Shown here piece after piece: positions 7,909 through 38,905 of a stretch of 64,000 nucleotides of DNA. The stretch comes from an uncultured Gammaproteobacteria bacterium (GTDB lineage: Bacteria > Pseudomonadota > Gammaproteobacteria > CAWCPV01). Below the pieces are notes generated by a model. The model saw only the letters and a list, made by a program, of their open reading frames with translations. It was not told the origin of the DNA and ran no database searches. The stretch lies in contig CAWCPV010000004.1 in the NCBI GenBank assembly GCA_963797555.1, positions 352,001 through 416,000 of the forward strand. Reading direction: 5' to 3'. The number at the start of each line of letters is the position of its first letter. Within the stretch, counting starts at the first letter, position 1. The position numbers and the translations under genes are program-made.

Positions 7909-8589
7909 CTACTCTCCACTCACATCGGCAATGATTGCAATTCGCCTGCCGACACCCCGCACGCGGAGCGTGATCTTGTCGCTGACGACGCCCGGGAGGC
8001 CCTCCATCCCGAATTCGGAGCGGCTGATCTCGCTGGTTGCGCAGAACGTCATCTCCCGCTCCGGGGTCTTCGGGTCGAACTCCTCGAAGGCGTAGCCCAC
8101 GTCGAAGCTTGCGGGACGGGTTACGCCGAGCAGCGTCAGCTTACCCGTGAGGCGCGCCTTTCCGTTGCCAGTCAATTGTATCCCCGTGCTTACAAACCGA
8201 ATCTCGGGATACCGCTGTACGTCGAAGAATTCCTCGCCCGTTACCATCCTGTCGATGATCTTGCTGCGGGTGTCCACGCTGGCGGGTTCCAGCACCACAT
8301 CCACATGGCTGCGCTCCAGGGCAGTCGGCGGGATCACGAAGCCGCCTTCGAAGTCTGCGAAGGTCCCGCGCACTTCAGAGAAGGGGAAGTGAGAGACACG
8401 AAACTCCATCCGGGACGCTTTCTTATCCAGGACATATCGGCCCGCCACGTGCGCCGGCGAGATCGCGACGCGGTTCGCGCCGTGGTTTGGAATATCGCAG
8501 GGGTCGCTCGCAGAGGCGGCGCTTGCCGTTAGGATCGCGAGCGCGAAGACACTCGCCAGCCTCTGAAGAAGATTTATGAACAGAACCAT
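7909..8589 (-). CDS. YceI family periplasmic protein
   Basis: Signal peptide; 'FFDVQRYPEIRFVST', 'GKLTLLGVTRP', 'ISRSEFGM'. Confidence 0.85.
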   Translation of the reverse strand: MVLFINLLQRLASVFALAILTASAASASDPCDIPNHGANRVAISPAHVAGRYVLDKKASRMEFRVSHFPFSEVRGTFADFEGGFVIPPTALERSHVDVVLEPASVDTRSKIIDRMVTGEEFFDVQRYPEIRFVSTGIQLTGNGKARLTGKLTLLGVTRPASFDVGYAFEEFDPKTPEREMTFCATSEISRSEFGMEGLPGVVSDKITLRVRGVGRRIAIIADVSGE

Positions 8590-9183
8590 GCGGTTATATT
8601 CCCATTCCGGTTAGCAAGAATTAGCATATTAGTGGACTCTACTATATCATCAGGAATCGCGTCAAGGGCTCCCGATTTGCCAGAACTGCCCCGGTTTCGC
8701 TCCCCGGGGCTAGCCAGCGTGTGCGGTGGCCCTGCGTGATGGGTCCTGTCCTGGCGGGTCCATGCGCCTTTGCGGCGCGTCGGCTGCGCCGGGAGCACAG
8801 CGCGAGAGCCGGATACGGCCGGGCACATGGGCGCGGCAATCCTACGGGAAGAGTCTTGCCTCAGCACTTTTGGAAGCTTGAAGATCGCCGCAGCCCAGAG
8901 CGCAGGGCGGCGGAGGAGCCCCCCGCAGAGCCTACCGTTTCGTCAGCCGCGTGGGGATCTGGGCGACGTCCGCGGCGTCAATTGTGCCTGGGGTGCTGAG
9001 TAGAGAAGTGAGGCTCGCCCGAGGCTCCGCGCTCTTCACCAGCGAACCGTCTTGTTGGGCTGCCGGCCTGGAGTCTCGGACCGCCCGGCACCGGAAGGCG
9101 ATGGCGGATACGCCGAGGGATGCGCAGGAGACGGATGCTTGACGAGTCCGAAGGCCATCGAGCATCGCCCGATGAGCCCCTCG

Positions 9184-9585
9184 CTATGGGTGTCCGGCTG
9201 AGAGCTTGCGAATAGATCTGCTGGCTGTCCCGATAGCGGCGTGCTCGCCTATCGACCGGGGAGGTCTCGTAGCCGCGCTCCGGGAGCCTGACGACTCTCG
9301 GGCCGCTCGCGACGAATCCTCACAAGCCTTGAGCGGCCGTGCGGTGATCAGGCCTTCTGCGGGCCCGATGCTGCAAACGCCGCCGTAGACGCTCATGATG
9401 GACTTGAGTTCGGATAAGACGGACCGGCGTTCGGCCTCACACAGCGGCGCCAAGTCTGCGGGTACTTCTCCGCGTTCCGCGCGAGCCATCATTTCCACGA
9501 CGTAGCGGCAGCCTCGCCGACAGACGGTCTCGAGGACGTGGTCGATGGAACCGAGCGGGCTGCGGTTGACGGAGCTTCGGGGCAT
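9184..9585 (-). CDS. Small hypothetical protein downstream of sufT
   Basis: Protein-like 'LETVCRRGC...LSELKSIMSVYGG'; start and end uncertain. Confidence 0.4.
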   Translation of the reverse strand: MPRSSVNRSPLGSIDHVLETVCRRGCRYVVEMMARAERGEVPADLAPLCEAERRSVLSELKSIMSVYGGVCSIGPAEGLITARPLKACEDSSRAARESSGSRSAATRPPRSIGEHAAIGTASRSIRKLSAGHP

Positions 9586-9646
9586 GCCGGCCAGATTATA
9601 CAGCGCCGGCCGGTTCCCTTGTAGTCGGAACGAAGTCCGCGTGGCG

Positions 9647-10797
9647 CTAGTGTAGTGCTTCATTCTGTTTAGAACTTAAACGTGCGTTGGCGCGGATGAC
9701 CTTCTGCAGGATGTCCTTAGCCTTGGCGGTCCAGATGAAGGGTTTGGGATTGGCGTTGTGGGCATCGACATAGCGGTTGATGGCATGGATCAACTCGGGG
9801 ACGCTTCGAAACACGCCACGGCGCAACCGATCCACAGTCAGGTCGCGGAAGAATCGCTCGACCATGTTCAACCAGGATGCTGAGGTGGGCGTGAAATGGA
9901 TGTGGAAACGCGGGTGTTTTCCCAGCCATTTCTGAACGTTGGGATGTTTGTGGGTGGCGTAGTTGTCACAGACCAAGTGCAGTTCCTTGTCCTTGGGCGT
10001 CTCGCGGTCGATTTGGCGCAGGAAGGTGAGCCACTCCGTGTGGCGATGGTGCGGCTCGCAGCGGGCAATCACGGAACCCTCCAAGGTGTTCAGGGCAGCA
10101 AACAGTGTCGTGGTGCCATGGCGCTTGTAGTCATGGGTCATGGTCGCAGCCCGCCCCTTCTTCAGCGGCAGGCCAGGTTGGGTACGATCCAGCGCCTGAA
10201 CCTGACTCTTCTCGTCGCAGCACAACACCAAAGCATGCTCCGGGGGGGACAGATACAGCCCGACGATGTCCTCCAACTTCTCGGTGAATTTCGGGTCGCG
10301 CGATACCTTGAAGGATTCGACACGATGCGGCTTCAGCCCATGGGCATGCCACACGCGCAGCACCGTGGTGTCGCTCACTCCGTCCGCGTACTCCACTGTG
10401 TCGCTGCTAAGGGCTGGGTCTGAGTCGTGCGTCGCACGATCTCGGCGGCATCCACCTTGGGCTGACGACCTCCGCGCGGCAGGTCACACTCGATGGCCGC
10501 CAGCCCGCCTTGCGCATAGCGCTCCCGCCAACGCCCAACCTGCACACGCCCAATCTTGAGTTCCGCCGCGATGGCCTTGTTCTCCATGCCCACCGCCGCC
10601 AACAGCACAATGCGCGCTCGGCGGGCCAGCCTCACACTCGTGGTGTTCGAACGCGACACACGCCTCAGGCTCCGCTGTTCTTCCGCGCTCAGTCGGACCA
10701 TCGGGGCTACTCGCATCAGTGCTCTCCTGTCTTGGCTTCATAGCCCTGGACAGCGATAGATCATATATGTTCCGTTAATTACCAAGCACTACACTAG
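9647..10797 (-). mobile_element. IS630-family element, copy 1 (16-bp internal deletion frameshifts the transposase)
   Basis: Terminal IR CTAGTGTAGTGCTT at both ends; DDE motifs '[11 protein letters not shown]', 'CDNYATHK', '[10 protein letters not shown]'; near-identical to 45525-46691. Confidence 0.95.
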
Positions 10798-11342
10798 AGA
10801 CCGGTCTCCAGGCGCGCTACGGCAGACATGCGCTCCGGCGTCCAGCGGGGCTCGAGCACCAGCTCCACATGGGCGGCTTCGACCGTAGGGATCAGCTCGA
10901 TGCGGCTTTTCACGTCATCCGCCAGCCACTGTGCCATGCCGCAGCTCGGCTCCGTAAGGGTCATCTTGACGAAGACCTCGCGGGCATCGTTGCCGCGCGG
11001 CTCGACGCGGCACTCGTAGATCAGGCCGAGATCCACGATGTTGACGGGAACCTCCGGGTCGTAGCAGGTTTTCATTTGCTCCCACACCAGCTTCTCGACG
11101 TCCGCATGGGTGGCTTCGGTGGGCAGCTCGGGCGTGGCCGGCCGGGTCCTGCCCAGGGCGTCGGCGTCCGCTCCCGCGATTCGGAACATGTGCCCGCGCA
11201 CGTAGACCGTGAAGTTACCACCGAGCGCCTGGGTGAGGGTGCCGACCGTGCCTTTGGGCAGACTCACATCCACACCCTCAGGGACGGCGACGGCCTGGCA
11301 ATCCCTGACGAGCGTCACTGGCTCCTTGACTTTTCCGTACAT
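10794..11342 (-). CDS. sufT: Fe-S cluster assembly protein SufT (DUF59)
   Basis: 'ALGGNFTVYV.G.MFRIAG.DADALG', 'CYDPEVPVNIVDLGLIY', 'MTLT.P.CGM'. Confidence 0.9.
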   Translation of the reverse strand: MYGKVKEPVTLVRDCQAVAVPEGVDVSLPKGTVGTLTQALGGNFTVYVRGHMFRIAGADADALGRTRPATPELPTEATHADVEKLVWEQMKTCYDPEVPVNIVDLGLIYECRVEPRGNDAREVFVKMTLTEPSCGMAQWLADDVKSRIELIPTVEAAHVELVLEPRWTPERMSAVARLETGL

Positions 11343-20221: not shown

Positions 20222-23059
20222 ATGACCACGCTCTTCATCAGCCACAGCAGCAAGGACAAAGGGTGGGCCGAGGTGCTGCGCGAGACCCTGCACGGCCAGG
20301 GCTACCAGTCGCTGTTCCTGGACTCCCACCCGGACGACGGCATCCCTGCCGGGGCCAAATGGGAGCAGACCCTCTGGCAGCGACTGCGGCAATCCCGCGG
20401 CGTCGTGGTACTGTGCACCAAGGACTGGCTCGCCTCGCCCTGGTGCGTCGCCGAGGCGATGATGGCGCGGGAAGCGGGGCAAGCCGGTCTTTCTCCTCGC
20501 CACTGCGGAGGTCGCGGACGGGCGTCAGGTCAAGGCGGCGGGGGAGGGAGGAGAAACGCCGCAGATCCCGGATTTCCTCAAGGACACCCAGTTCATCAGC
20601 TTGGCCGGCGTGTCCGAGGAGGAGGCCCTGCAGCGCCTCTGGCGCGGGCTGGAAGAAGAGGGCCTGAAGGACGATTTCCCGCTGCCGGAGCGGCCCTATC
20701 CGGGGCTGGAGCCCTTCCAGGAGCGAGATGCCGCCGTCTTCTTCGGCCGGGACCAGGACATCGCGCGAGTGCGAGGCGTCCTCAACCGATGCCGGCGCCG
20801 CAACGCGAAGGGCTTCATCCTGGTCCTGGGCGCCTCCGGATGCGGCAAGTCCTCCCTGGTGCGGGCGGGCGTGCTGCCGCGGCTCAGGCCCGTCGCCAGC
20901 GCGGGCGGCTCATCGCGTGAGTGGGTGATCGCGACCCCTTTCATCGGCAGCACGGGCCTCGACGGGCTCACCCGATCGCTGGCAACGGCTTTCGCGGACC
21001 GCAAGCCGCCAGAAGACCTCGAGTCCAAGATCCGAGCGATCGAGGCGGCGACGGACTCTGATGGCGGCACGCAAGAGGCCGCGCGGTCATTGCGGAGTCT
21101 CGCCAACAGCTTGCTCATCGCTTACGGCTGCACTGAAGGACACGTGCTGCTGGTGCTGGACCAGCTCGAAGAGGTGTTCGGAAGCAAGCCCGGCTCGGGG
21201 GCACGCATCATGCTGCGGCTGCTGCTGGGGGTCACCGCCGAGGACGGCAGCCCCGTGGTGGTCCTCGCCACCATGCGCTCGGATTTCCTCAACGCCTTTC
21301 AGCTCTTTCCCGGTGCCGCCGAGCGTTACGAGGAGGTCACCCTCGACCCCATGCCCAGGGCCCGCTTCGCCGAGCTGATCGAGGGGCCGGCGGAGCGCTT
21401 CGGCCTGCGGATCGAGCCCGGGCTGACCGAGCGCCTGGTGGAGGACACGCGCTACGACGACGCCCTGCCCCTGCTCGCCTTCACCCTGGAGCGGTTGTAC
21501 AAAAAGGGCGGGGAGGACGGGGTGTTGACGCTCCAGGAGTATCAGGACCTCTTCCCGCCCGTCGCCGTGCGCGGTGAGGACGGGCGCACGACCGAGCACC
21601 GAGGCGTGTCCGCCGCCATCAAGCACGCGGCCGACGAGATCCTCTCCCAGACCGGTTATGCCAGGCTTCTCGTCGAAGACCGACCCGCGCCTGCGCGACC
21701 TGCGCCGCGCGTTCTACAGTCTCGCCCGGGTGGGGGAGGCGGGCCAGTTCACGCGTCGCACCGCCCTGCGGTCACGGATGCCGTCGTTCGTGCGCGGAGG
21801 TCCTCGAGCGCTTCGTGGACCAGCGCCTGCTGGTGTCCGACGTGGGGAAGGATGGCGAGCGCACCCTGAGCGTCGCCCACGAGGCCCTGTTCCGCGTCTG
21901 GGACACCCTGCACGGCTGGCTGCTGCAAGACCGCAAGGCACTCGCGCTGCGCCACCAGATCGAGCAGGCCGCCGCCGAATGGCATGCCGCGCACCGGGCC
22001 GAGAGCCGCCGCTGGCCGGAGGAGCGCATCCTGGACGCGGTGGGCGAGATCGGCCGCAGCGGCGTGTCCCTCGATGACGTGGCCCAACCCGAGATCGTGC
22101 GCGCCTTCCTCGGCCCGACGCACCCGGAAGTCCTGTCGGAGCTGCCGTCCCTCGGCGCGGCCGAGGATCAGGCAGCCGGCAGCGGCTGCTACGGCGACGC
22201 CTGGCGTCTGCCCCTTTCCCACGAAGCGCGGGCCAGCGTCGGTGTGCGCCTGGCCCTGCTCGGCGACCGCCGCGGCGGCGTGGGGCTGCGCGACGATGGC
22301 ATGCCGGACACAGCCTGGTGCCGGGTCGAGGGCGGCGAGGTGATCATCGAGATCCGCGCGAACCCCGACGACCCGCGATCGGAGGTCGCGAGCACGCTCA
22401 CGCGGACGGTGCCCCGTTTCTGGATCGCACGCTATCCGGTCACCGTCGCCCAGTTCCAGGCGTTCCTTCGGGACTGTCACCGCGATGGCGAGTGGCACCT
22501 GCCGTCCGGCCTTCCCTTCGACCTCCCCGCCGACTACCCGCCGCCCAAGCACCGGGCAGGCTACGGTAACCATCCCGCTGATTCCGTCAACTGGTGGGAT
22601 GCGGTCGTCTGGTGTCGCTGGCTGAGTGCACGGCTCGGGCACGAGATCCGGCTGCCGACGGAATTCGAGTGGCAGCTTGCCGCGACAAGAGGCGACCCCG
22701 CCAGGACCTATCCCTGGGGCCCCGACTGGGATCCGCAGCAGGAGCCCTGGAGGGCCAACACTGTCGAGAGCGGCCTCAACAGATCCACGGCGGTCGGGCT
22801 CTACCCCTCGGGCGTGTCGCCGGCTGGCGTGCTGGATATGGCAGGGACCCTCTGGGAATGGTGCCTGAACAGTTTCGAAGACCCCGAGAACACGGGCCTT
22901 CCCGCAGACCAGCAGGACCGTCGTGTGCTGCGCGGCGGGTCCTGGTACGACGATCAGGCCCTCGCGCGCTCCGGCATCCGCCTCAGGCTCAGCCCGAGCA
23001 ACCGCGGCGGCAGCGTGGGGTTTCGGGTGTTGTGTTCGTCCCCCATCTGTGATCACTGA
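20222..23059 (+). CDS. DGR target 1: TIR - STAND (nSTAND1-like) ATPase - FGE/CLec domain (three apparent frameshifts near 20473, 21678, 21793)
   Basis: TIR 'LFISHSSKD...SPWCVAE'; 'PYPGLEPF', Walker A GASGCGKS, Walker B 'LVLDQLEE'; FGE 'RLPTEFEWQLAA', 'DMAGTLWEW', 'RVLRGGSW...GFRV'. Confidence 0.9.
22922..23048 (+). repeat. DGR variable repeat VR1
   Basis: 127-bp gapless match to TR; 18 of 19 mismatches at TR adenines. Confidence 0.95.
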
Positions 23060-24247
23060 TCTCTGGCTGCCGCGCGAGCGGCACACACGGCGCGCAGCGG
23101 CGTCTCCGCGCGCTGAACGCGGCTTGGGTACCGCTGTGAGGACGCGGTGGACACGTGGTCAGGATTCCCGGGCCGCCTTTGCGCGGCGATGCTTGGCAGT
23201 ATGCACAGCGACCCAAGCACGTGTTGGCGCAGGCCCCAGCTATCGGCGTGGCCCATGTGGGCGATCCAGCCTTGGATACTCGCGTCGAGCCTCGGCGAAG
23301 CTGATCGCGCCGGCGTGATAGGCCGCCAGCCGTGAGCGCAGCCCCCGCCGAGCGTTGCGCACCTTGCGGCCCTTGACCAGCCGGTGGGTCGGGTGGACCA
23401 CGAAGCCGAGCCAGGGAATGCCGGCCTGGACCGGCAGAACCTGAGCGCGCGTTTCGTGGATAACGAGCCGCAGCCGGGCGAGCCTTTCGATGATCGCCGC
23501 CTTCCAGGCCCACAGCTCGCGCTTGCGGTCGCCGAAGAGGGCGAAGTCGTCGACGTAGCGCAGATAGGCTGGGCAGCGTAGGTCGCGCTTCACGAACTCG
23601 TCGAAGGGGTGCAGGTAGCAATTGGACCAGAACTGCGATGTCAGATTGCCTATCGGCAGGCCCCTCGGCCGGCACACGGCCAGCAGGTCATCCCCTGGGA
23701 AGCGCACGTAGCGGTACTCGTCGTCCAGCACGCCGCGGCCGCTGTCGACGATGGCCTCGACCAGCGCCATGATGTCCGGCTCCGGCATCTGGCGGCTCAG
23801 GGTATCGAGCAGGACCGCGTGATCGACAGACGCGAAGTGCTGCACGATGTCGGCGCGCAGCACGTAGCGGTGAAGGCGAGCGAATTCCTGTAGCCGGTCG
23901 ATGGCCCGGTGGGTGCCCTTGCCGGCCCGGTTGGCGTAGCTGTCCGGCATGAAGAGGCGCTCGAAGCGGGGCTCCATCACGGTGCACAGGGCGTGGTGCA
24001 CGACTCGATCGCGGAACTGGGCCGCGCTGATCTTGCGCCGTTTCGGGTCCTTGATATGGAAGTGGACGTAAGCGCCCGGGCGGTACGTGCCCGCCAGCAA
24101 CTGCGCGCGTAGCTCCGCCAGATGCTCCTCCGCTCGGTACTCGAAGCGGGCGACGCTCTGCGTGCCACGCTTGCCGCGCGCCGCCCTGCGCCAGGCGAGC
24201 ACCAGGTTCTCCCAGGAGCACAGATGCTCGAAGGCGGGGCTCGTCAT
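23053..24247 (-). CDS. DGR reverse transcriptase (apparent +1 frameshift near 23290)
   Basis: 'FRDRVVHHAL', 'GKGTHRA', DGR signature 'GLPIGNLTSQ', catalytic 'YLRYVDD'; corrected C-terminus '[24 protein letters not shown]'. Confidence 0.95.
23068..23105 (+). promoter_or_regulatory. Post-VR1 hairpins (DGR target recognition)
   Basis: TGCCGC-GCGA-GCGGCA, then an imperfect ACACGGCGC-GCA-GCGGCGTCT; homologous to the post-VR2 hairpins. Confidence 0.7.
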
Positions 24248-24298
24248 CGAAGCGGGCCGCGCCACGCCTGGCGCGGCAACCCGAAACGGAGCATGAGC

Positions 24299-24643
24299 AT
24301 GGCCGAGGACATGGTGATCTTCTCGCGGACCTTCGACCTGCTGGAGTGGCTGCTGCCCAAAGCGGAGCGCTTCCCGCGGGTCTACCGATCCACCCTCACC
24401 CAGCGATTGATGGATGCGGCCCTGGACCTGCAGGAGACGCTGGCTGCCGCGGAATCGCGCGAGGGCCGATCGCGGGTATCCGCCCTGCGCAATGCCGATG
24501 CCGCCCTCGGGCGGCTGCGCATCTACCTGCGCCTCGCCCACCGCTGGCGCTGGCTGAGCGACGGCCAGTACGAGCACGTGAGCGCCATGACGGCTGAGAT
24601 CGGCCGGCTGCTAGGGGGCTGGGTCCGCTCGGAGCGCGGCTGA
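24299..24643 (+). CDS. avd: DGR accessory variability determinant Avd (four-helix bundle)
   Basis: 114 aa, basic; 'FPRVYR', 'LRIYLRLA', 'EIGRLLGGW'; GGAG RBS. Confidence 0.9.
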   Translation: MAEDMVIFSRTFDLLEWLLPKAERFPRVYRSTLTQRLMDAALDLQETLAAAESREGRSRVSALRNADAALGRLRIYLRLAHRWRWLSDGQYEHVSAMTAEIGRLLGGWVRSERG

Positions 24644-24678
24644 GGGCGGCCGAGAGGCCGAAGCCTGCGGCCGGGGGC

Positions 24679-24720
24679 GGGGCGCCGGGGGAGCGGACTC
24701 CGGCCGGCGCCCCTGTTTTG
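24679..24720 (+). terminator. Possible intrinsic terminator after avd (or structure of the minus-strand TR spacer RNA)
   Basis: GGGGCGCCGG...CCGGCGCCCC followed by TGTTTTG. Confidence 0.4.
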
Positions 24721-24904
24721 TATGCGCCCGACGGCCCGGCGACGCTAGGCCGTGCGGACGGGACCGACCGGCGCCATCTTTCCTACCTCGCCTCGGCCCG
24801 CAAACCGTCGTCGGCGGGCAATTCCGGAAGCGGGTCCGATCCGCAGCATGGACCTGACCCACTCGCTCGGCGCCCGAAAGCGCCTCGCCCTGGAAGGAAC
24901 CGAA

Positions 24905-25034
24905 AGATGTGGGACGAACACAACACCCGAAACCCCACGTTGTTGTTGCGGTTGTTCGGGTTGTTCCTGTTGCGGTTGCCGGAGCGCGCATTGTCCTGAT
25001 TGTCGTTCCAGGACCCGCCGCGCAGCACACGGGC
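24905..25034 (-). ncRNA. DGR template repeat (TR)
   Basis: AAC-rich copy of both VRs (reads [42 protein letters not shown]); 12 AAY codons. Confidence 0.95.
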
Positions 25035-25181
25035 GTCGTCACCGGGCGGCCCCACCGGCCGTCAGACCGGCGTTGCCGATTATGCCGGAGATGGCGGACG
25101 CTAGCCAGACCACCGATGCATCGAACCCGGCCTGCACCACGTGGCAAACCGCGAGATGAGGCGAGTGGAAAATCCGCGTAA

Positions 25182-25220
25182 AGACGGCGCTTCGCGCCGT
25201 CTATGCCGCTCCCGCGGCAT
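25182..25220 (-). promoter_or_regulatory. Post-VR2 tandem hairpins
   Basis: Minus strand ATGCCGC-GGGA-GCGGCAT and AGACGGCGC-GAA-GCGCCGTCT, both perfect. Confidence 0.8.
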
Positions 25221-25227
25221 CCAGTGA

Positions 25228-27960
25228 TCAGTGATCACAGATGGGGGACGAACACAACACCCGAAACCCCACGCCGTTGCCGCGGCCGCCCGGGCTGCCC
25301 CCGAAGCGGTAGCCGGAGCGCGCATAGCCCCGATCGACGACCCAGGACCCGCCGCGCAGCACACGGGCATCGAAATCATCGGCGCGGGACTCGATCACCT
25401 CGGTTCTGTCGTGCTTGTTCCAGCACCATTCCCAGACCGTTCCCGCCATGTCGAGTGCACCTGCCGGGGAGCCGCCAGCGGGGTACATGCCGACCGCGGT
25501 AGCGGCCCCGAGCCGGCTCTCGAAGGTGTTCGCCCGGTGCGGCTCGCCTTTGGGATCCCACTCGGGTCCCCAGGGGAAAACATTATCGGGGTCGCCGCCC
25601 GTGGCCGCCTGCTGCCATTCCCACTCGTCCGGCAGGCGTACGTCGAAGCCGCGGCGCCGCGAAAGCCAGCGGCAGAAAGCGAGGGCGTCGAACCAGCTCA
25701 CGTAGACCGCAGGGTGGTTGCCGTAGCGGCCGAGGTCGTAGCCGTCGCCTTCGGGATCGCGATAAAGGTCTCCTGCCCACCAGCGGGGATCGCGCCAGCC
25801 GTCATCCTTCTCCAGGAAGGCCCGATACTGCGCGACCGTGACGGGGTAGCGGGCGATGTGAAAGCCCTCGACCTGCTTGCCGCGCGCTTTGGTGCCGCCG
25901 AGCAAACGCCGCTGGACCTGAATGGCGACCTCGCCGCCGGGCACTGGGCACCAGTCCATCTGCGGGGTCCCCTGCGCATCGACCCCCACCCCCAGCCGCG
26001 GGTCCCCGAGGACGGCGAGGCGCTCGCCGATGAGGGTGCGGCGGCGGTGGGTCGTGTCGGGCCTGTCGATCTCGGCCAGCATTGCATCGGCATCGACGGG
26101 ACCGAGGAACTCCTCTTCTTCCGGGCTCAGCACGAAGCGCGGGCCGGGCTGCCGCAGCATCGACGCCAGTTCGCGCACGCGCTCGTGCGACCAGAGGTAG
26201 CTCGGTTGCTTCTGGTGCTCGAGCCAGTTGCGCGCGTCCGCCTGAAGCTGCTGGCCCAGCGCCGCCCGCTGCTTATGCTGCTCGACATAGTTCCAGAGCG
26301 TCGGCCAATAGGGCTGGGCCTTGCCCTCGGGGTCCAGGCCCTTGCTGCGGATCAGCGTCTCGTGGATCAGGCTGACCCACCGCCCGTCGCGCTGCGCGTC
26401 CTCGTCCCCCTCGGTCCGCTCGGTCACGGTGATGAGCCGCAGCGGCCCCTGTGTCTGCCCCACGTCCCGGGCGCGCTCGCCGGCGAGACGACTGACCAGG
26501 GCGCGACCGTCATCGCCGCCGCCCGCCGCTGCCATGGCCTCGGGGAACGGGAGACGCCGGCGGGTGTGACGGCGTCCTTCGGGGTCCACGTTCACCAGCC
26601 GGAACAGAAGCTCCAGAGCCCGGTTGCGCTCGCTGCCCAACGCTTGGAGCAGATCGTCGGCGCTGCGGCTGAGGATGCCGGCGAGGCCGCCCTGATCGGT
26701 GAAGAGCTTGCCGCTCAGGCGGGGGCTGTTCTTGCGCTGCTCCCACAGCCAGTGGAGCGCGTTCTCGACCAGCGGCAGCGCCCCCGGCTCGTCGTACGCC
26801 TGTTGCACCATGGCCTCCTGCACCTCGCTCACATCGAGACCGGCCAGCCGCGCCGGGCCGCCGATGACCTCGCGCAGAGCATCCGCAGTAATGGGCGGCA
26901 GCGTCCAGGGCTTACCCAGCCGGTTGCGCAGGCCGACCAGCCGCCGCAGGTCCTCGAAGCGGTCGAGAAAGTCCGCGCGCACGGTGGAGATGATGAACAG
27001 CGGACAATCGTTGTCTCCCAACGCGCCCGCGAGCAGGCGATCGAAGTGCTTGCGCTCGTCCGGGTCGGAGAAGGTGAACAGCTCCTCGAACTGATCGATG
27101 GCGAGCAGAAAGGCGCTGTCGTCCCGCTTGCGGCTGCGTAGCCAGTCGGTGAGGGCGCGGTCACTGGCCTCCAGGCGTTGGCGGACATCGGCCATCTCCT
27201 CCTCGAAGGTCAGCGCGAGCTTCTCGGCCAGCATGGCCACCGGGTGCTCCCCCGGCATCATCGGCCCGATCCGCCGCCAGTGCTCGATGCGGGTGCGGGG
27301 CCACAGCCAACCCTGCTCCACCAGCGGCAGCAGGCCGGCGCTCATCAGCGAGGACTTGCCGGAGCCGCTGTTGCCGTTGATCTCCAGCCAGCGCACGCTC
27401 GGGCTGCCGGGACGGGTGTCGAAGCAGGCGAGCGCGTCCAGGGTCTCCTTCTGGCGGCCGAAGAAGAGCTGGGCCTGATCCATGTTGTAGGCGGCGAGTC
27501 CGACGAAGGGGCGGCCCTCGAACTTGGCAGCGCTTGCCACCAGGGTGCGGTCGCGGATCTGCGCGAGCAGTCGCTCGGGCAGGGGGGCCGCCCCATCCCA
27601 GAGTGTCGCCTGGAACAGCCGCAGGAAGGCCGGGAGCGTGTCGGGTCCCATGTCGCCCAGCAGGATGGGAAAGATCGGCAGGCGCTCGGCGTCGTCGTGG
27701 GGACCGAAATAGCGGTTGAGCGCCGCCTGGGTCTCGGCCCCGATCCAGCGCCGCACCCCGTCCCGGCCCACCAGCACGACGAAGCTTCCGCAGGCATCCA
27801 CCGCCTCCTGCAGGCGGTCGAGCCACAGCTCGCCCGCGCGGATGCGATCGTCGTCCTTGAACACCGACAGCCCGCACCGATCGAGCTGCCCGCGGAGGTT
27901 GATGGCCGCTTCGAGGTCGTTACGGCTGTGGCTCAGGAAGACGTGGTAGGGATCGGTCAT
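25228..27960 (-). CDS. DGR target 2: TIR - STAND ATPase - FGE/CLec domain (910 aa, intact)
   Basis: 'VFLSHSRND...RWIGAE'; 'PFVGLAAY', GNSGSGKS, 'LAIDQFEELF'; 'RLPDEWEWQQAA', 'DMAGTVWEW', VR2 at the C-terminus. Confidence 0.93.
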   Translation of the reverse strand: MTDPYHVFLSHSRNDLEAAINLRGQLDRCGLSVFKDDDRIRAGELWLDRLQEAVDACGSFVVLVGRDGVRRWIGAETQAALNRYFGPHDDAERLPIFPILLGDMGPDTLPAFLRLFQATLWDGAAPLPERLLAQIRDRTLVASAAKFEGRPFVGLAAYNMDQAQLFFGRQKETLDALACFDTRPGSPSVRWLEINGNSGSGKSSLMSAGLLPLVEQGWLWPRTRIEHWRRIGPMMPGEHPVAMLAEKLALTFEEEMADVRQRLEASDRALTDWLRSRKRDDSAFLLAIDQFEELFTFSDPDERKHFDRLLAGALGDNDCPLFIISTVRADFLDRFEDLRRLVGLRNRLGKPWTLPPITADALREVIGGPARLAGLDVSEVQEAMVQQAYDEPGALPLVENALHWLWEQRKNSPRLSGKLFTDQGGLAGILSRSADDLLQALGSERNRALELLFRLVNVDPEGRRHTRRRLPFPEAMAAAGGGDDGRALVSRLAGERARDVGQTQGPLRLITVTERTEGDEDAQRDGRWVSLIHETLIRSKGLDPEGKAQPYWPTLWNYVEQHKQRAALGQQLQADARNWLEHQKQPSYLWSHERVRELASMLRQPGPRFVLSPEEEEFLGPVDADAMLAEIDRPDTTHRRRTLIGERLAVLGDPRLGVGVDAQGTPQMDWCPVPGGEVAIQVQRRLLGGTKARGKQVEGFHIARYPVTVAQYRAFLEKDDGWRDPRWWAGDLYRDPEGDGYDLGRYGNHPAVYVSWFDALAFCRWLSRRRGFDVRLPDEWEWQQAATGGDPDNVFPWGPEWDPKGEPHRANTFESRLGAATAVGMYPAGGSPAGALDMAGTVWEWCWNKHDRTEVIESRADDFDARVLRGGSWVVDRGYARSGYRFGGSPGGRGNGVGFRVLCSSPICDH
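25239..25368 (-). repeat. DGR variable repeat VR2
   Basis: Gapless match to TR; all 23 mismatches at TR adenines. Confidence 0.95.
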
Positions 27961-28024: not shown

Positions 28025-29050
28025 TCATGCCGGAAGCGACACGAGACCGAGCCTTGCTTGCAGGCCCTTGCGGACCAACTGCACGGCGCGGCGCATGTCC
28101 CTTGTCGCGAGCAGCTCGCGGGTCTCCGGCTCATCCAGGCCGGTGCTGAGTGCCGCGGAAAGATTGGGCCTGGCTGTTTCGATGTGCTGGAACAGGGCGT
28201 CCAGCGCATCCCCAGTGGCGCGGACGCCGAGTGGCAACTGGAACTGCGCGCTCAGGTCCAGCAGCTTCTCGAGGCCCGCGGTCCTGGCCTTGTGCCAATC
28301 CACGGTGAATTCCTCGGGACGGGTTGCGGCCGGGCCGAGCAGCGCCCTGGACAGCACTTCCGCGGCGCCGCCGAACCCGCCCAGGATGTAGAGCGGGACT
28401 TGGCGTTCGAGTGCCATCAGCGCTTCCTCGAAGATGCCGGGCAGAAAGCCGCTGAACCCTTGCACCTTGCCGCCGAGTATCACCCGCGCCACGATCGGCG
28501 GCACCGGCTCCGGGCTCGGGAGGTCGGGAATGTCGATGGCCATGCCGTCCATCGCCAGGCGGCGCATGCTGCTCAGAGCGACGGCGGCGTTGAACAGCGC
28601 GCGATCCGAGCCTCCTCTCGCTTCATGGTCCGGAACCGTATCCGCCTGCGAAATGCCCGCGTGCTGCTGGGTGATGCGAACGACCCGGCAGCAGTTGATC
28701 CACTCGGCCTCGATCCGGGGCGTGATGTCGAGGTAGTGCGGCCATGCGGAATGGTTGTAGAGCCGGCCGATCACGAGATTGGTATCCGGACCGCCCAGGC
28801 TGTTGTCCTCCTGCTCCGCGCTGATCAGGCGCAGGAGGTCGAAGGTGAAGTTGTCCTCGGTTTCTTGCCAGTGGCCGCCGTAGGCGAGGCTCACCCCCTG
28901 TCTCAGCAGGGGGCGTGCGAGGCGCAGCAGCAGCTCGCGCAGGTGCTCCAGGCCCAGGCCGCGGGCCAGGAGGTTTTCCCTCGCATAGGAGACGGAGAGG
29001 CCGACGACGCGAGGCGTGCTGGCTCGCGAGCGATACTTGCCGCCGCTCAT
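28025..29050 (-). CDS. SLOG-superfamily (cluster 2-like) protein
   Basis: 'VGLSVS', 'LAYGGHW', 'LSSMRR', 'ARVILGGK', 'PGIFEEA', 'PLYILGGFGGAA'. Confidence 0.8.
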   Translation of the reverse strand: MSGGKYRSRASTPRVVGLSVSYARENLLARGLGLEHLRELLLRLARPLLRQGVSLAYGGHWQETEDNFTFDLLRLISAEQEDNSLGGPDTNLVIGRLYNHSAWPHYLDITPRIEAEWINCCRVVRITQQHAGISQADTVPDHEARGGSDRALFNAAVALSSMRRLAMDGMAIDIPDLPSPEPVPPIVARVILGGKVQGFSGFLPGIFEEALMALERQVPLYILGGFGGAAEVLSRALLGPAATRPEEFTVDWHKARTAGLEKLLDLSAQFQLPLGVRATGDALDALFQHIETARPNLSAALSTGLDEPETRELLATRDMRRAVQLVRKGLQARLGLVSLPA

Positions 29051-30354
29051 AATGCCACCTGGTCGAAGCTGTGGAAGGCGAGCCGCGGGAAGAATTCGTC
29101 GAGAATATCGAGCTCGAGCCCGGAAAGACCGCGGCCAGGATAGAGCACGCGCAGCTCCTCGCTTGCCGCCCGCACCCTGGGGATATGCAGCAGCGTGGTG
29201 GGGTCGGGCAGCCAGTTGAGAACGATGCAGTCCGCCTCGTCCGGCATCGTTCTTCCGAGAGCCGAGTGGAACGCGGCGAGCAGGACGTCGCGCAGCGCGA
29301 TGGTCACGATCTGCTCCGATTGGTGCAGTTGCGCCGCGGGGTCGACCGGTTCGTCCGACCAGCGGATGAGCGTGGCGTTGCCGATCTCGGGGATGCCCGG
29401 TGTCTGGGATCCCCCTTCGAGCGCTTCGACCACGACCATGGGATTCAAGCGCCACCGCTCGGCGAGGCCGGGCCTCGGGATGTCCTGCAGCGGGCGCCGA
29501 AACAGCGACAGCTCGCGCCGGCACCATGGGCGGGTCGCATAGCGGGCGCTGCGCACGGCGATCATGGCCGCGGTCTGCATGCCCTCGACATTCGACTGCA
29601 GCACCCGGCTGAACGCCGATCCGAAGGGAATGTCGTTTTCATCATAAAACGCGGCGAGCTGGGTCTGACTGTAGATATAGTCGCGAATCCGCCTGGCGGG
29701 CTCCGTGCCATCCGCCTTGGCATGGCTGAGAAAAATCGTGATCTTCGGCTGAGCCGCGTCCACCGCCGCCCCGCCATCGACCGCGTTCCCGGCCGGCGCG
29801 TCCCCCGGCCTCAGCATGATGCGGCACAGGGCCTCGGTGAGCTGCTTCAAGAGCGAGCGGACCACGGTCTCGGTCGCCTCCGGCGGTACTGGAGCACCCG
29901 CGACGGGCAACGGCAGACCTGCGGGGCGGAGGAAATTCAGCTCGCGCAGGGGCGCGGGCACGTTGAATGCCGTCGAATCCAGGGCCACCGGCAGGAACAC
30001 GCGGCGCACGCCAGTGCCGCGCTCCAATGCGAGTCGCACCAGCCAGTGCCGCCAGGCGGCATCCGCGATCATCTGATCGTCGATCAGCAGCAGCACGGTC
30101 TGCATGTTGGCGGAGCCGGAGGCGGGCGCCTGTGGCGGGGGTGGGGAGTTGGGGCCTGGAAACCGCGACTCTCCCGGCAAGGGCGGGGGCAACCCGCCCT
30201 TCGGGGCTTCCGGAGCCGGAAGGCTGCGGTAGAACACCTGCGGGCCGAGGCCATTGCCAGGCCTCAGCCACCCATGAATGCGCGGGGCCAGCAGTTCTCC
30301 GAGCGTACTGGCGGGGTGCCACAACACGAAGATCTCAGGAATCGGATAGTCCAC
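29047..30354 (-). CDS. TIR-domain protein
   Basis: 'IFLSHAKADG', 'AFYDENDIPFG', 'YATRPWCRRE'; 4-bp overlap with the SLOG gene. Confidence 0.8.
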   Translation of the reverse strand: MDYPIPEIFVLWHPASTLGELLAPRIHGWLRPGNGLGPQVFYRSLPAPEAPKGGLPPPLPGESRFPGPNSPPPPQAPASGSANMQTVLLLIDDQMIADAAWRHWLVRLALERGTGVRRVFLPVALDSTAFNVPAPLRELNFLRPAGLPLPVAGAPVPPEATETVVRSLLKQLTEALCRIMLRPGDAPAGNAVDGGAAVDAAQPKITIFLSHAKADGTEPARRIRDYIYSQTQLAAFYDENDIPFGSAFSRVLQSNVEGMQTAAMIAVRSARYATRPWCRRELSLFRRPLQDIPRPGLAERWRLNPMVVVEALEGGSQTPGIPEIGNATLIRWSDEPVDPAAQLHQSEQIVTIALRDVLLAAFHSALGRTMPDEADCIVLNWLPDPTTLLHIPRVRAASEELRVLYPGRGLSGLELDILDEFFPRLAFHSFDQVAL

Positions 30355-30552: not shown

Positions 30553-32213
30553 TCAGGTGCCCCTGGATCTCTCCCGCGCACTGCGAAACCAAGAGAGCAG
30601 CCCACGGCCGGCATGCCGCCGGCAAGCTTCAAGCTCGGCCTCGACGGTCTTCTTGTCGTCCGCCCACTGGGCCATCCCGGGCGCCCGCTCCAGCAGGGCG
30701 GCGAAGATACGGTAGGACGCTTCGTAAAGGGGCAAAGCGGCCTCGTTCCTGCCATTGCCGGCCTCCATGCGCGCAAGCCGCAGATAGGCTAACGCCAGGT
30801 CGCGCTGCCAGCCGGCGTTGCTCGGGTCCTGCTCGGCCAGGCGCCGGCTGATGGCGAGGGTTTGCTCGAAGGCCGAGCGCGCTGCCTCGAGCTGCCCTTG
30901 GGCCTGCAGCACGCCGCCCACCCGGCTGTGCGCCACCGCGAGGCCGCGCTGCCAGCCGGCGTTGCTCGGGTCCTGCTCGGCCAGGCGCCGGCTGATGGCG
31001 AGGGTTTGCTCGAAGGCCGAGCGCGCTGCCTCGAGCTGCCCTTGGGCCTGCAGCACGTCGCCCACCCGGCTGTGCGCCACCGCGAGGTCGCGCTGCCAGC
31101 CGGCGTTGCTCGGGTCCTGCTCGGCCAGGCGCCGGCTGATGGCGAGGGCTTGCTCGAAGGCCGAGCGCGCTGCCTCGAATCTGCCCTTGGGCCTGCAGCA
31201 CGCCGCCCACCCGGCTGTGCGCCACCGCGAGGCCGCGCTGCCAGCCGGCGTTGCTCGGGTCCTGCTCGGCCAGGCGCCGGCTGATGGCGAGGGTTTGCTC
31301 GAAGGCCGAGCGCGCTGCCTCGAGCTGCCCTTGGGCCTGCAGCACATCGCCCACCTGGCTGTGCGCCACCGCGAGGTCGCGCTGCCAGCCGGCGTTGCTC
31401 GGGTCCTGCTCGGCCAGGCGCCGGCTGATGGCGAGGGACTGCTCGAAGGCCGAGCGCGCTGCCTCGAGCTGCCCCTGGGCACGGAAAACGTCGCCGAGCA
31501 GACAACGCCCCTCCCCCTGCGCCGGCTCGTCGGTGCTGACACGTGCGAGATTCGAGAATCTCGCGCGCGGCGTCGGCGAGCTGTGCCGTTTCTCCCCGCG
31601 CGTCGCGCGCCCAAGCGATGGTGATCAGGCTCCAGAGGCGTGCCCGCCCATCGACGAGGCGGGTTTCGTCGAGCTCTCTGAGAACCGTCGCCAGGGCGTA
31701 CCGGTCCTCCGGGCGTGCACTGCTACTCCAGTGCCGGTTCAGGCGTTCCAGCTCACTCGCGCCGCGTTCGGGGTCGGCGCATAGCTGGTGGTAAATCCAT
31801 TCGATGCGGCCCGTTGCCCCGAGGTCGTCCGGGAAGCATGCCGCCGCGAGGGCGGACAGGGAACGGAGGTGGGAGAGGTTCTCCAGAGCTAGCGTCCGCC
31901 GCCATCCCAGGCGGGTGGATTCGTGGACGTTGCGCCGGTTCAGCCCGCCTCTGCCGTACCGCTCGACGAAGGGAAAGGACGCCAGCGCCTCGAACCGTCT
32001 CTCTGCCTCCTCCGCTGGAATACCCAGCATCCTCGCCAGCAGGCTGGCATCGAACCAATGGAGCACGGCGGCTGCATCGAGCGCGGCTTTGAGCGCCTCG
32101 CGCTCCCCCTCTGGCCGGGTCGACAGGACGAATTCGGCGGCCACGGCCGCCTGGGCACGAGTATCGCCCTGGGACGCCTCGAGGCGCTGGAGGAGCTGTT
32201 CGACAATAGCCAT
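30553..32213 (-). CDS. Helical/wHTH plus TPR-repeat protein (two apparent frameshifts near 31551 and 31180)
   Basis: N-terminal 'HWFDASLLARML...FPFVER...VHESTR'; 48-aa TPR-like repeats 'GQLEAARSAFEQxLAISRRLAEQDPSNAGWQRxLAVAHS'. Confidence 0.8.
30803..31480. repeat. 144-bp tandem repeat, about 4.7 near-identical copies
   Basis: Unit starts at 30803, 30947, 31091, 31236, 31380. Confidence 0.95.
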
Positions 32214-32221
32214 TGGTCAGG

Positions 32222-33394
32222 TCAGCTCTGGGCAATGGCCTTGCAGGTGGCATCCACAATTGCTGGGATGCCCTTGGTCACCATCAATACGGTGGGCAGA
32301 TGCGCCCCCTTCTCGCGGAAACCGGGATAACGTTGTTCGACCCAGGGCTCCCAGTCCGCGGGATCGGTGATGGGCGTCAGCGGGATATGGCGTGAAGAGT
32401 CGCGCCAGACGGCGTTGGCGAAGTTCGGCACCTTTTTACCGGCGACGATCACGGCCACACCCAGCGCCGTCTCGACCTCAGCCAGGAGCTGCAGGCTGAG
32501 CCAGTCAGCAACCACCTTGTTGCCTGCCGCATATTCGTAGCTGTCGAAGATCAGAAGGACGGCCCGGCGCAGCGCCCGGAGGTCCTTGCGCAGCAGGTGC
32601 GTCTTGCTGGCGCCTTCGCGGCAGAACTTCGGCAGGTGCTCTCCCAGGTCGAGGTCGAATTGGCCGAGGACGTCCTCGAGCTTCAGCCCGCCGCCCTTGA
32701 AGTCCACCCGCACCACCGGGATGCCCAGCTTTTTCGCGTAGGCCGTGGCATGGCGGACGAGCACGGACTTCCCGAGGCCGCTACCGCCTTCGAAGAGCAG
32801 GATGCGCTCGCGCAAGGTCCCGGCGAGGAGTTCCACGATCATCGGCCACTCGCCGGTGCGATCCGCCACATCCGGCGCAAATGGCACAGGCTCGGGCCAG
32901 CGGACGGTCGGCGGCTCGATGCCTTGCAGGCCGAGGCGCTCGGCGGCCCAGCGAATCAACTGATTCAACTGATCGTCGCTGGCGAAGGGCCGAAACTGGT
33001 GCCATGCGCGGAGTCTTGTCCGAACTTTGTCGGCAAGGATGTCATGAAGGAACGCGAGGCGGATGCGAGCGTTGTGGCCCTTCTCGTCCCAGAGGGCCTG
33101 CCGAAACAGATCGGCTTCCGTAGCCGCACCCAGGCCTGCGGCCGGCGGCCCGGTCTTATCGTAAGCGGCGAACCACCCTTCCGATGCGACGATGACCACG
33201 CACGCGGATTCATTGGCGCAGTCCTCGCACCATTTTGGTCAGCCCTCGTCTGGGCCGCCGGGGTGCTCGTCGAGATAGAACTGATCCAGTGTGACCGGGA
33301 GTTGCGCCTGACGCAGGAGCTGGCCCAGGCGGCGCACCGACCTGGCGTGCTCGGGGCTCTCGTGGCGGTAGCTGATGAAGACCTGGTTCACCAT
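32222..33394 (-). pseudogene. SEFIR/TIR - P-loop ATPase with in-frame TGA at codon 52
   Basis: 'MVNQVFISYRHESPEH...GGPDEG*PKWC' in frame with the downstream ORF; Walker A GGSGLGKS, Walker B 'LLIFDSYE'. Confidence 0.75.
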
Positions 33395-37188: not shown

Positions 37189-37622
37189 CGACGGTCACGC
37201 GCAGCGTTCTCGTGCCCTATTCGGCCGCCGAGATGTACGCTCTGGTCAACGACGTGGGTTCCTATCCCCAGTTCCTACCATGGTGCCGGAGCGCCCGTAT
37301 TGTCACCGGGGACGAGGACATGGTGAAGGCCCGCATCGACCTGGCGCTGGGCGGGGTCCACAAGACATTCACGACCTGCAACCGGCTCCAGAAGAATAAG
37401 ATGATCGAAGTGCACCTCTTGGAGGGTCCGTTCCGTCACCTGGAGGGTTACTGGAGCTTCGACGCGTTGGCCGAGAACTCATGCAAGGTGGCACTGGACA
37501 TGGAGTTCGAGTTCTCCAACTGGCTTCTGCACCGGGCCCTAGGGCACGTCTTCGGGCAGATCGTCAACACGCTGGTGGACGCGTTTCGGCGTCGGGCGGA
37601 GCAAGTGCATGGAAGGCGTTGA
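37185..37622 (+). CDS. ratA: RatA/PasT (START-domain) protein
   Basis: 'VPYSAAEMYALVNDV.SYPQFLPWC', 'GPFRHLEG.W.F'. Confidence 0.92.
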   Translation: MTTVTRSVLVPYSAAEMYALVNDVGSYPQFLPWCRSARIVTGDEDMVKARIDLALGGVHKTFTTCNRLQKNKMIEVHLLEGPFRHLEGYWSFDALAENSCKVALDMEFEFSNWLLHRALGHVFGQIVNTLVDAFRRRAEQVHGRR

Positions 37623-37911
37623 TGGCTTCGAGGTGGAGGTCGCCTATGCCCGCCCGGACGTACAGGTGATCATCCCGCTGCGAGTGCCACCGGGCTGCTC
37701 CGTCGAGGAAGCCATTCGGCGTTCGAGCGTGCTGGAGAAGTTTCCCGAGGTGGATCTGGGTGCGCAGCGGGTCGGGATCTTCGGCAGGCTGGTGGAACTG
37801 CAGCACCGCCTGCGTGCCGGTGACCGGGTCGAGATCTATCGGCCGCTTGTCGCCGACCCCAAGGAAGCGCGCAAGAAGCGTGCGCGGCAGAGGGGGACCC
37901 AGAACGCCTAG
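37609..37911 (+). CDS. rnfH: RnfH/RatB ubiquitin-like protein
   Basis: 'VEVAYA', 'GDRVEIYRPLVADPKEAR'. Confidence 0.92.
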   Translation: MEGVDGFEVEVAYARPDVQVIIPLRVPPGCSVEEAIRRSSVLEKFPEVDLGAQRVGIFGRLVELQHRLRAGDRVEIYRPLVADPKEARKKRARQRGTQNA

Positions 37912-38255
37912 TGCGCCTTTAGGGCAGCTTCCGGCCGGATGTCGCCGGCGACCTTGGCCAAGTGGTCGTTCTTGAAGGACACCTTAATCATTCGTTCCTC
38001 CCGTCTCCCGCCCCCGATTTGCAGCGTGTACACGTAAACCCATTCCTGTGGGTGGAAGGGATCGGTGAGTAGGGGTGTGCCAAGAATGGCCATGACCTCG
38101 CGCTTCTCCATGCCCGGCCGCAGCTTATTTAGCATGTCTTGAGTGACGATGTTCCCCTGTTGAACGTCGATCTTGTAGACCCACGGGGATAGCATGCTGC
38201 AAGCGCTCAGCACCAGGACCGCAAGCGCTGGCAGGGTCACGAGTAGCTTCTGCAT
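37908..38255 (-). CDS. bamE: Outer membrane assembly lipoprotein BamE
   Basis: Lipobox LSAC; 'YKIDVQQGN', 'LGTPLLTDPFH'. Confidence 0.93.
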   Translation of the reverse strand: MQKLLVTLPALAVLVLSACSMLSPWVYKIDVQQGNIVTQDMLNKLRPGMEKREVMAILGTPLLTDPFHPQEWVYVYTLQIGGGRREERMIKVSFKNDHLAKVAGDIRPEAALKAH

Positions 38256-38452
38256 CTCTTATTCGGCCTGTTGTAGACTTGTCGAGTAGCTGACAGCCGG
38301 GTCGCTCCGGCTCCGAACGGCCTGCTCACGGATGCTCATAGTCCGGAACGTGGCCAGGGGCGGATCTCCTTTGGAGGTCGACAAGCGTGCACGGCGGATC
38401 ATACCCGGAAAGCCGCTGCGACGCATACCGCAGTTGCCAAGAGGTGGAAGGA

Positions 38453-38869
38453 GTGGAAAGCCAGGAACTGAAGAAGGCCGGCCTCAAGGCGACGCTTCCC
38501 CGCATCCGCATATTGGAAATGCTGGAGACTAGCGAGCAACGCCATTGGAGCGCCGAGCAGGTCTACAAGACACTACTGGAGAGCGGCGAGGACGTGGGTT
38601 TGGCGACGGTTTACCGCGTGCTGACGCAATTCGAGGGCGCCGGCCTGGTCACACGCCATAACTTCGACGCGGGTCACTCGGTGTTCGAGCTCAGTCAGGG
38701 GCCGCATCACGACCACATCCTGTGCGTGAAGTGCGGCAAGATCGCCGAGTTCGTGGATGACACCATCGAGAGTAGACAGCGGCAGATTGCGCAAGAGGCC
38801 GGATGGAGTATGACGGATCACGCGCTTGTGCTGTACGGCGTGTGTCCGGAGTGCGGGGCGGTCCGCTAG
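38453..38869 (+). CDS. fur: Ferric uptake regulator
   Basis: 'LKKAGLKATLPR', 'GLATVYRVL', 'HHDHILC'. Confidence 0.95.
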   Translation: MESQELKKAGLKATLPRIRILEMLETSEQRHWSAEQVYKTLLESGEDVGLATVYRVLTQFEGAGLVTRHNFDAGHSVFELSQGPHHDHILCVKCGKIAEFVDDTIESRQRQIAQEAGWSMTDHALVLYGVCPECGAVR

Positions 38870-38905
38870 GCTCAGATGTCGTGACGAAATCGTCGAGCAG
38901 CAGAT

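Follow-up and report, generated by a model that had tools for sequence, protein, structure and literature searches.

A diversity-generating retroelement between two convergent TIR-STAND-lectin genes of an uncultured gammaproteobacterium

We analysed a 64,000-nucleotide (nt) stretch of DNA, here called the window, from an uncultured Gammaproteobacteria bacterium (contig CAWCPV010000004.1 of assembly GCA_963797555.1, positions 352,001 to 416,000). It holds a diversity-generating retroelement (DGR) between two neighbouring genes for proteins that combine a TIR domain, a STAND (signal transduction ATPase with numerous domains) module and a C-type lectin (CLec) domain. The ligand-binding tips encoded by both genes have been rewritten by a genuine DGR. 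The reading of the locus as a whole, in which we have good confidence, is that a DGR of architecture B3 serves two convergent paralogous TIR-nSTAND1-CLec genes by the mechanism proposed below, and that the breaks in its reading frames are likely errors of the assembly. Coordinates are positions in the window, and a descending range denotes the minus strand.

Template and variable repeats of the retroelement

Repeat finding in the window revealed a direct repeat pair (24905-25038 and 25239-25372) with inverted partners (22922-23048, and 22922-23112 paired with 25175-25365). The copy at 25030..24907 is A-rich when read on the minus strand and was assigned as the template repeat (TR). Its homology to the other copies extends to 25038, and mismatches were counted over a 124-nt core that contains 30 adenines. 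The first variable repeat, VR1 (22923-23046, plus strand), forms the final 42 codons of target 1 ahead of a short constant tail, and the second, VR2 (25364..25241), lies at the 3' end of target 2. TR and VR1 differ at 19 positions, 18 of them TR adenines and the last a silent T>C change (Fisher p = 2.5e-11), while TR and VR2 differ at 23 positions, every one a TR adenine (p = 1.8e-19). At the positions where the TR has another base, VR2 equals the TR at 94 of 94 and VR1 at 93 of 94. The adenine bias claimed in an earlier note on this DNA, with the same counts, therefore holds on realignment, and the difference between template and variable repeats is restricted to adenines in the manner of a DGR.

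An in-frame codon check placed the 28 mutable adenines within 12 AAY codons plus GAC, CAG, GAC and AGG. No stop codon can be reached from these 16 TR codons by adenine mutation, as the earlier note had stated, and VR1 and VR2 encode different residues at 13 of the 16 variable codons. The paralogous coding DNA immediately upstream of the VRs is just 62% identical in an ungapped comparison. At the protein level the targets share 44% identity over the C-terminal 424 amino acids (aa) and 25% over the NTPase, which bears out the proposal that they are divergent except at the VR. On these identities, they are divergent paralogs that converge on the core of TR, avd and reverse transcriptase (RT) genes. 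At non-A positions the VRs have been homogenised with the TR, although the paralogous DNA beside them has diverged. TR-derived cDNA must therefore have been installed in both genes in the past.

We considered whether plain paralogy or conversion among lectin genes, rather than a retroelement, had produced the likeness between TR and VRs, since many related CLec-coding segments in the genome match the TR at 68-82%. Those segments, however, differ from the TR mostly at non-A positions, whereas the TR/VR differences fall on the adenines of one strand. In addition, the A-rich copy is non-coding and adjoins genes for Avd and a DGR-type RT. This explanation is already contradicted, and we give it a negligible probability. 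A search of the whole genome for remote VRs, suggested in the earlier note, found none that fits this TR; the next best match has 19 non-A mismatches, and the remaining matches belong to separate TR/VR systems. Outside the genome, the TR is about 90% identical to the A-rich repeat of four related loci (L023, L027, L044 and L045).

The RT gene (24247..23240) encodes 335 aa as it stands and matches Pfam RVT_1 (1.3e-13). The motifs named in the earlier note are present, IGNLTSQ at residue 200 and YVDD at residue 232. Among solved structures its closest relative is 8ub7_A (E 2.5e-43), compared with 4.9e-17 for the best group II intron RT. Since 8ub7 also contains Avd, it is the Bordetella phage bRT complex. 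The motifs and the closest structure assign the protein to the DGR lineage of predicted RTs. The accessory protein Avd (24293-24643) scores 83.5 bits with the NCBIfam model DivGenRetAVD NF033474 (cut-off 80) and 5e-19 with Pfam bAvd, and matches the PDB entries 4dwl (Bbp7) and 8ub7_B (Avd). An Avd between the two targets had been noted before, and its identity stands; the gene, however, lies on the plus strand, opposite to the TR and the RT. The same orientation of avd was found in 22 of the 24 related loci that have an Avd match.

The order TR, avd on the opposite strand, RT is the published architecture B3, TR-(avd)-RT. In the parts of Wu et al. 2018 (NAR, PMC5758913) used here, B3 is given as TR, avd on the reverse strand and RT, and two-target cassettes make up 13% of the set. 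The cassettes of that study also have initiation of mutagenic homing sequences (IMH in the VR, IMH* in the TR) and a GC-rich inverted repeat after the IMH. Corresponding elements are predicted here. Both VRs read CCC and TGT where the TR reads CAC and TTT, and a pair of GC-rich hairpins comes after each VR. For VR1 the pair occupies 23068..23103 on the plus strand, with hairpin 1 at 23068-23083 (stem GCCGC, 4-nt loop GCGA) and hairpin 2 at about 23087-23103. After VR2 they occupy 25220..25182, with hairpin 1 at 25220..25203 (4-nt loop GGGA) and hairpin 2 at 25202..25182; the folding z-score of this pair is -5.4. Both hairpins are kept in 16 VR flanks from the window and eight related loci, with compensatory changes at 5 of 14 pairs, and a run of T follows the second hairpin in many relatives. 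Hairpins of this form are not present after the TR. Together, VR, IMH and hairpins form a 191-nt inverted repeat (arms 22922-23112 and 25175-25365, 84% complementary) that flanks the segment 22922..25365.

The 3' end of the TR (IMH*) and the spacer that follows it are predicted to form a structured RNA of about 245 nt (24922..24679, minus strand), which terminates in a long GC hairpin adjoining the avd stop codon. An RNAalifold consensus of 12 loci contains 57 pairs. Changes on both sides of a pair were seen at 22 of the 57, compared with 9.6 +/- 2.3 in shuffled alignments (0 of 500 reached 22) and 6-9 in slid controls. The predicted fold behind the TR is thus supported by covariation, and we take it to be the expected counterpart of the Bordetella DGR RNA spacer. 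No Rfam family matched over 23000-25400, and a promoter/terminator consensus scan over 22900-25500 returned nothing.

Target proteins and proposed mechanism

Target 2 (27960..25228) is an intact gene of 910 aa, with Pfam matches to TIR_2 (1.3e-13), nSTAND1 (1.8e-75) and FGE-sulfatase (1.2e-42). Target 1 (20222..23059, plus strand) lies in four pieces in this assembly, and Pfam finds the same succession of domains on three of its open reading frames (ORFs). The description of both targets as TIR-STAND-FGE/CLec proteins was therefore correct. For nSTAND1 (PF20703, cut-off 27.1), target 2 scores 255.4 bits and the pieces of target 1 score 198 and 44.7 bits. The other domains score 52 and 58.7 bits (TIR_2, cut-off 28) and 146.8 and 142.1 bits (FGE-sulfatase, PF03781) in the two targets. 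A NACHT match in target 2 (16.5 bits, E 0.0076) stays under its cut-off of 26.7. The Walker A and Walker B-like motifs are GASGCGKS and VLLVLDQLEE in target 1, and GNSGSGKS and FLLAIDQFEE in target 2. Profile scores above the cut-off and these motifs suggest that both targets are STAND NTPases of the nSTAND1 type. The TIR motifs are WCVAE in target 1 and WIGAE in target 2, and the glutamate of this W-x-x-x-E motif is taken to be the catalytic residue, after SARM1 and plant TIR. The profile and the conserved glutamate place both N-terminal domains among the putative TIR NADases.

At the other end of the proteins, the VR makes up the last ~42 codons of the lectin domain in each target. PDB matches of target 2 comprise FGE (formylglycine-generating enzyme) and the DGR variable protein TvpA (2y3c, 1.4e-9), which is consistent with an FGE-type CLec variable protein carrying its VR at the C-terminal end. 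Neither target protein has a signal peptide. Likewise, no 19-residue window reaches 1.6 on the Kyte-Doolittle scale in either target (maxima 1.21 and 1.36), in agreement with the earlier finding of no transmembrane helix.

By analogy with characterised systems, the locus could work as follows. RNA comprising the TR and its spacer would be bound by RT and Avd and reverse transcribed with random incorporation opposite adenines. The cDNA would replace VR1 or VR2, guided by the IMH and hairpin, and could give up to ~15^12 x 192 lectin surfaces per gene. In the cytoplasm, the lectin tip would bind an invader-derived or foreign ligand, upon which the STAND module would oligomerise and the clustered TIR domains would cleave NAD+, leading to abortive infection or signalling.

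The DGR part of this scheme resembles that of Bordetella phage BPP-1 (Mtd, bRT and Avd; PDB 8ub7 series). The two share RT and Avd homology, adenine-specific differences, AAY codons, an IMH with hairpin, a structured spacer after the TR and a variable protein of CLec fold. Unlike the phage-borne BPP-1 element, which acts on a tail fibre, the DGR described here is chromosomal, has avd on the opposite strand and serves two targets, both of them apparently cytoplasmic TIR-STAND fusions. The predicted receptor part is built like the antiviral STAND NTPases (Avs, bNACHT) and the eukaryotic TIR-NLRs (TIR nucleotide-binding leucine-rich repeat receptors), with an N-terminal effector (TIR), a central STAND NTPase and a C-terminal sensor. 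It differs from Avs and bNACHT in that the NTPase belongs to nSTAND1, and from all three in that a hypermutable lectin fold stands in place of TPR/LRR sensors.

Systems of this kind are already in the literature. In the sections of Doré et al. 2024 (PNAS, PMC10907252) drawn on here, two-target CLec-STAND DGRs are described, some members having an N-terminal TIR or peptidase, and Accumulibacter and other aggregate-forming bacteria are reported to carry several related DGRs that spread horizontally. The relevant part of Kaur et al. 2020 (PMC7159879) deals with NTP-dependent conflict systems whose FGS/CLec domains are diversified by DGRs. Between them, these sections also contain the immune-receptor hypothesis for the class. 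As two-target CLec-STAND DGRs, some with TIR, have been published, the locus opens no new category.

It is closest to clade 5D as far as Doré et al. 2024 present it in those sections, for example DGR 6 of Thiohalocapsa PB-PSB1, in having one DGR, two targets, a central nSTAND1 and a single C-terminal CLec/FGE domain. Clade 5D hosts likewise have several DGRs per genome (six TR/VR systems here), and the RT has kin in Accumulibacter; the agreement covers architecture and taxa (Accumulibacter). In contrast, the targets of PB-PSB1 DGR 6 carry EAD8 where those in the window carry TIR, and this assembly has frame shifts in both target 1 and the RT. With respect to B3 as described by Wu et al., the window differs in that the targets converge around the core and the core is inverted relative to close relatives.

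Broken reading frames and the points against this reading

Target 1 is not a single open frame. Three-frame translation, tblastn against target 2 and a frame plot of GC content at third codon positions (GC3) revealed that the coding frame shifts by +1 at three places, near 20470-20482, 21677-21692 and 21786-21800. The TIR thereby comes to lie in frame 2, the NTPase in frame 0, a middle piece of 38 codons in frame 1 and the C-terminal part in frame 2. The ortholog of target 1 in L027 is a single open frame, and relative to L027 and L044 the three break sites have 1, 4 and 1 extra bases, respectively. A fourth +1 frame change, at about 23288-23291 in the RT, throws the C-terminal motif LDASIQGWIAH..ADSWGLR out of frame.

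Several points weigh against the reading given at the outset. Target 1 is not readable as one protein in this assembly, and the RT C-terminal motif is in frame in eight of nine compared relatives, the ninth (L027) being broken at another place. Three long housekeeping genes are unbroken, namely the 1928-aa uvrA frame, secA (910 aa) and gyrA (858 aa), and the SLOG gene next to the locus, target 2 and Avd are likewise intact, so that genuine decay is a possible cause of the breaks in target 1 and the RT. An indel of four bases is, moreover, unusual as a consensus error. The locus carries no direct sign of current mutagenesis, and VR1 has the one non-A change. As to function, PADLOC assigned target 2 to no known defence system, with a weak TIR match only (SAVED_TIR, 1.8e-5); its Avs and bNACHT models did not match this protein. 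The ligand, the oligomerisation and the NADase activity are all proposed by analogy, and according to the sections of Doré et al. 2024 used here no CLec-STAND protein has been characterised experimentally.

The structural points in this list favour a decaying relic, in which target 1 would be a recently formed pseudogene whose three frameshifts are real, the RT would be C-terminally truncated and inactive, and target 2 alone would survive, as a fixed receptor that is no longer diversified. All four breaks fall within ~4 kb (20222-24247), a degraded copy of the architecture with Avd and RT as fragments occurs on contig C6, and degradation of redundant DGR components is reported in the same parts of Doré et al. 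2024. Breaks are, however, frequent elsewhere in the assembly. Among the fuller-length genes of resistance-nodulation-division (RND) transporters (PF00873), a count that excludes one further partial match, 6 of 11 are in one frame and 5 of 11 are split, with at least 13 breaks, and one split gene is in at least seven pieces. Three of the eight nSTAND1 loci in the genome are also split, as is a DGR RT on contig C3. The metagenome-assembled genome (MAG) records of relatives are broken in a similar way, with the RT of L044 in three pieces and a target of L045 in at least five. In addition, every piece of target 1 keeps a GC3 of 0.8-1.0 and a protein similarity to L027 of 56-80%, so any decay would have to be very recent. 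The genes rpoB and rpoC, sought as integrity controls, were not found in this 84.6% complete, 20-contig assembly. Because breaks are common across the assembly, all four at this locus, three in target 1 and one in the RT, are probably consensus indel errors, which we hold to be a fairly likely explanation and likelier than real lesions. A decaying relic is the less probable reading, though a possibility of some weight.

Population data do not bear on this choice. One public run was found, a soil metagenome held as short contigs (word share 0.07), and no RNA dataset was listed. Seventeen short contigs of this run were placed on the locus, some of them 99-100% identical. Depth was zero over the bin of the first frame break and 0.4 and 0 in the bins of the other break sites, and no piece spanned a break site among the 8 listed of 22. 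VR1 was covered over its first 30 nt only, where the run is identical to the window. The soil contigs give no evidence either way on activity or frameshifts. An exact 44-nt pattern from the shared 3' end of the VRs matched 0 metagenome contigs, and a protein-guided metagenome scan with target 2 returned a single irrelevant 1.1-kb contig.

The functional points bear on a different alternative, namely that the DGR is functional and its targets are not anti-phage sensors, serving instead in self/non-self or kin recognition, in regulated cell death in aggregates or as signalling regulators. The parts of Kaur et al. 2020 and Doré et al. 2024 considered here tie such systems to multicellular or aggregate life styles, and regulatory tuning is proposed in the portion of Vallota-Eastman et al. 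2020 (PMC7517822) used. The relatives of the RT come from floc- and filament-forming groups (Accumulibacter, Defluviicoccus, Anaerolineae), and target 2 matches no validated defence family. On the other side, the apparent absence of a signal peptide or transmembrane segment suggests cytoplasmic proteins and argues against direct recognition at the cell surface, and conflict-type modules, a TIR and SLOG gene pair and an AAA/TPR gene, adjoin the locus. We regard this alternative as unlikely, and favour the DGR with two putative TIR-STAND-CLec immune receptors as the best account of the locus.

Related loci, genomic context and implications

The RT has relatives with 57-83% identity (best segment) at 28 loci in Gamma- and Alphaproteobacteria, Acidobacteriota and Chloroflexota, many of them in Accumulibacter, Dechloromonas, Defluviicoccus and Anaerolineae MAGs. 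Five related loci, L023, L025, L027, L044 and L045, also have the order VR(+), A-rich TR, avd(-), RT(+), VR(-), and their VRs are A-poor. In a further relative, L028, a VR (2142-2261; A fraction 0.25, 11 AAY triplets) matches its TR in A content and is apparently undiversified.

L027 and L044 carry orthologs of both targets. There, the ortholog of target 1 precedes the TR and shares the strand of the RT, with that of target 2 in convergent orientation; in the window the two targets are interchanged. Synteny by blastn showed that the core of RT, avd, spacer and TR (~23104-25183) is inverted relative to L027 (7120-9151) and L044, with breakpoints within the 191-nt inverted repeat. In the comparison with L023, the breakpoints fall within the targets themselves, near 26250-26272 (target 2) and near 21958 (target 1). 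The TIR-NTPase parts at the N-terminus and the sensor parts at the C-terminus are recombined in L023 relative to the window; its upstream target begins like target 2 and ends like target 1. The inverted repeats of convergent targets might thus act as a recombination substrate. Inversion between the repeats would flip the core, larger inversions with breakpoints near the NTPase/sensor boundary would exchange lectin halves between two TIR-STAND chassis, and a second layer of variation would be added to adenine mutagenesis. We propose this tentatively and consider it rather doubtful. If this holds and such flips are recurrent in populations, a shufflon-like device for swapping sensors would operate at the locus alongside the DGR.

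The host is a deep-branching gammaproteobacterial MAG and the DGR is chromosomal. The SecA of the host is at most 74% identical to that of uncultured Gammaproteobacteria, and a genome search gave class-level kin only. The genome holds five further TR/VR systems, six in all, and several DGR RTs. Further TR/VR places were recorded at C3:44.6-50.2 kb, C14:5.8-10.2 kb, C6:61.1-63.3 kb, C6:46.7-50.7 kb, C4:520.4-521.3 kb and C14:228-229.7 kb. The share of mismatches at adenines was 12/13, 14/14, 12/13, 16/17, 18/21 and 17/18 in the further systems and 10/17 in a degraded one. The place at C6:46.7-50.7 kb is the decayed copy of the architecture mentioned above, and the TR/VR pair at C4:520446/520714 has no RT match nearby. 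The uvrA frame used above as a control (C4:511393-516981, minus strand) contains two full UvrA-like units (profile 2-924; 2-286 + 402-924) and is predicted to be a double UvrA, fused or in tandem.

Target 2 is immediately preceded by a gene for a SLOG-cluster2 protein (28025-29050, minus strand; Pfam LD_cluster2 3.3e-39) and, with a 4-nt overlap, a gene for a TIR protein (29047-30354, minus strand; TIR_2 3.5e-10). A TIR gene is directly upstream in 59 of 72 SLOG loci from many phyla. Within 7 kb, a CLec match occurs at just six of the 72 loci and an NTPase resembling that of target 2 at just four. The TIR and SLOG module shares an island with such targets at L133, L134, L148 and L196, the last being the place of L044. 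Models of Thoeris ThsA/ThsB did not match 28025-30354; the SLOG protein belongs to no PADLOC or NCBIfam family and the TIR protein gave weak matches only. The pair was considered as an obligate part of the DGR, a Thoeris-like signal receiver, and this was rejected. Since it is autonomous, widespread and rarely near such targets, it is not counted in the DGR system. It may be an undescribed defence pair of TIR signal and SLOG sensor.

Further along, six to seven tandem 144-nt repeats encoding TPR units (30604-31611) lie in two overlapping ORFs of different frames on the minus strand, downstream of an AAA_22 NTPase ORF (32222-33199). The region 30553-33199 (minus strand) looks like a STAND-like NTPase-TPR gene, possibly frame-broken. 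A rough frame scan of 8500-10800 and 37600-38900 found no segment with a coding-like GC3 signature.

The locus is of value as a well-annotated member of its class, compact and well delimited, with an intact 910-aa target, a clean TR, Avd, conserved hairpins and a predicted template RNA fold that is conserved as well. What is added here to published descriptions is the conservation of the hairpins after the VRs, the covarying RNA after the TR, the same layout across phyla, the core inversion and the five further TR/VR systems, together with comparative hints on cassette inversion and on swapping between sensor and chassis. Close relatives in wastewater bacteria could serve for reconstitution. 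Among bacteria, DGR-diversified cytoplasmic STAND proteins come closest to an anticipatory repertoire of receptors.

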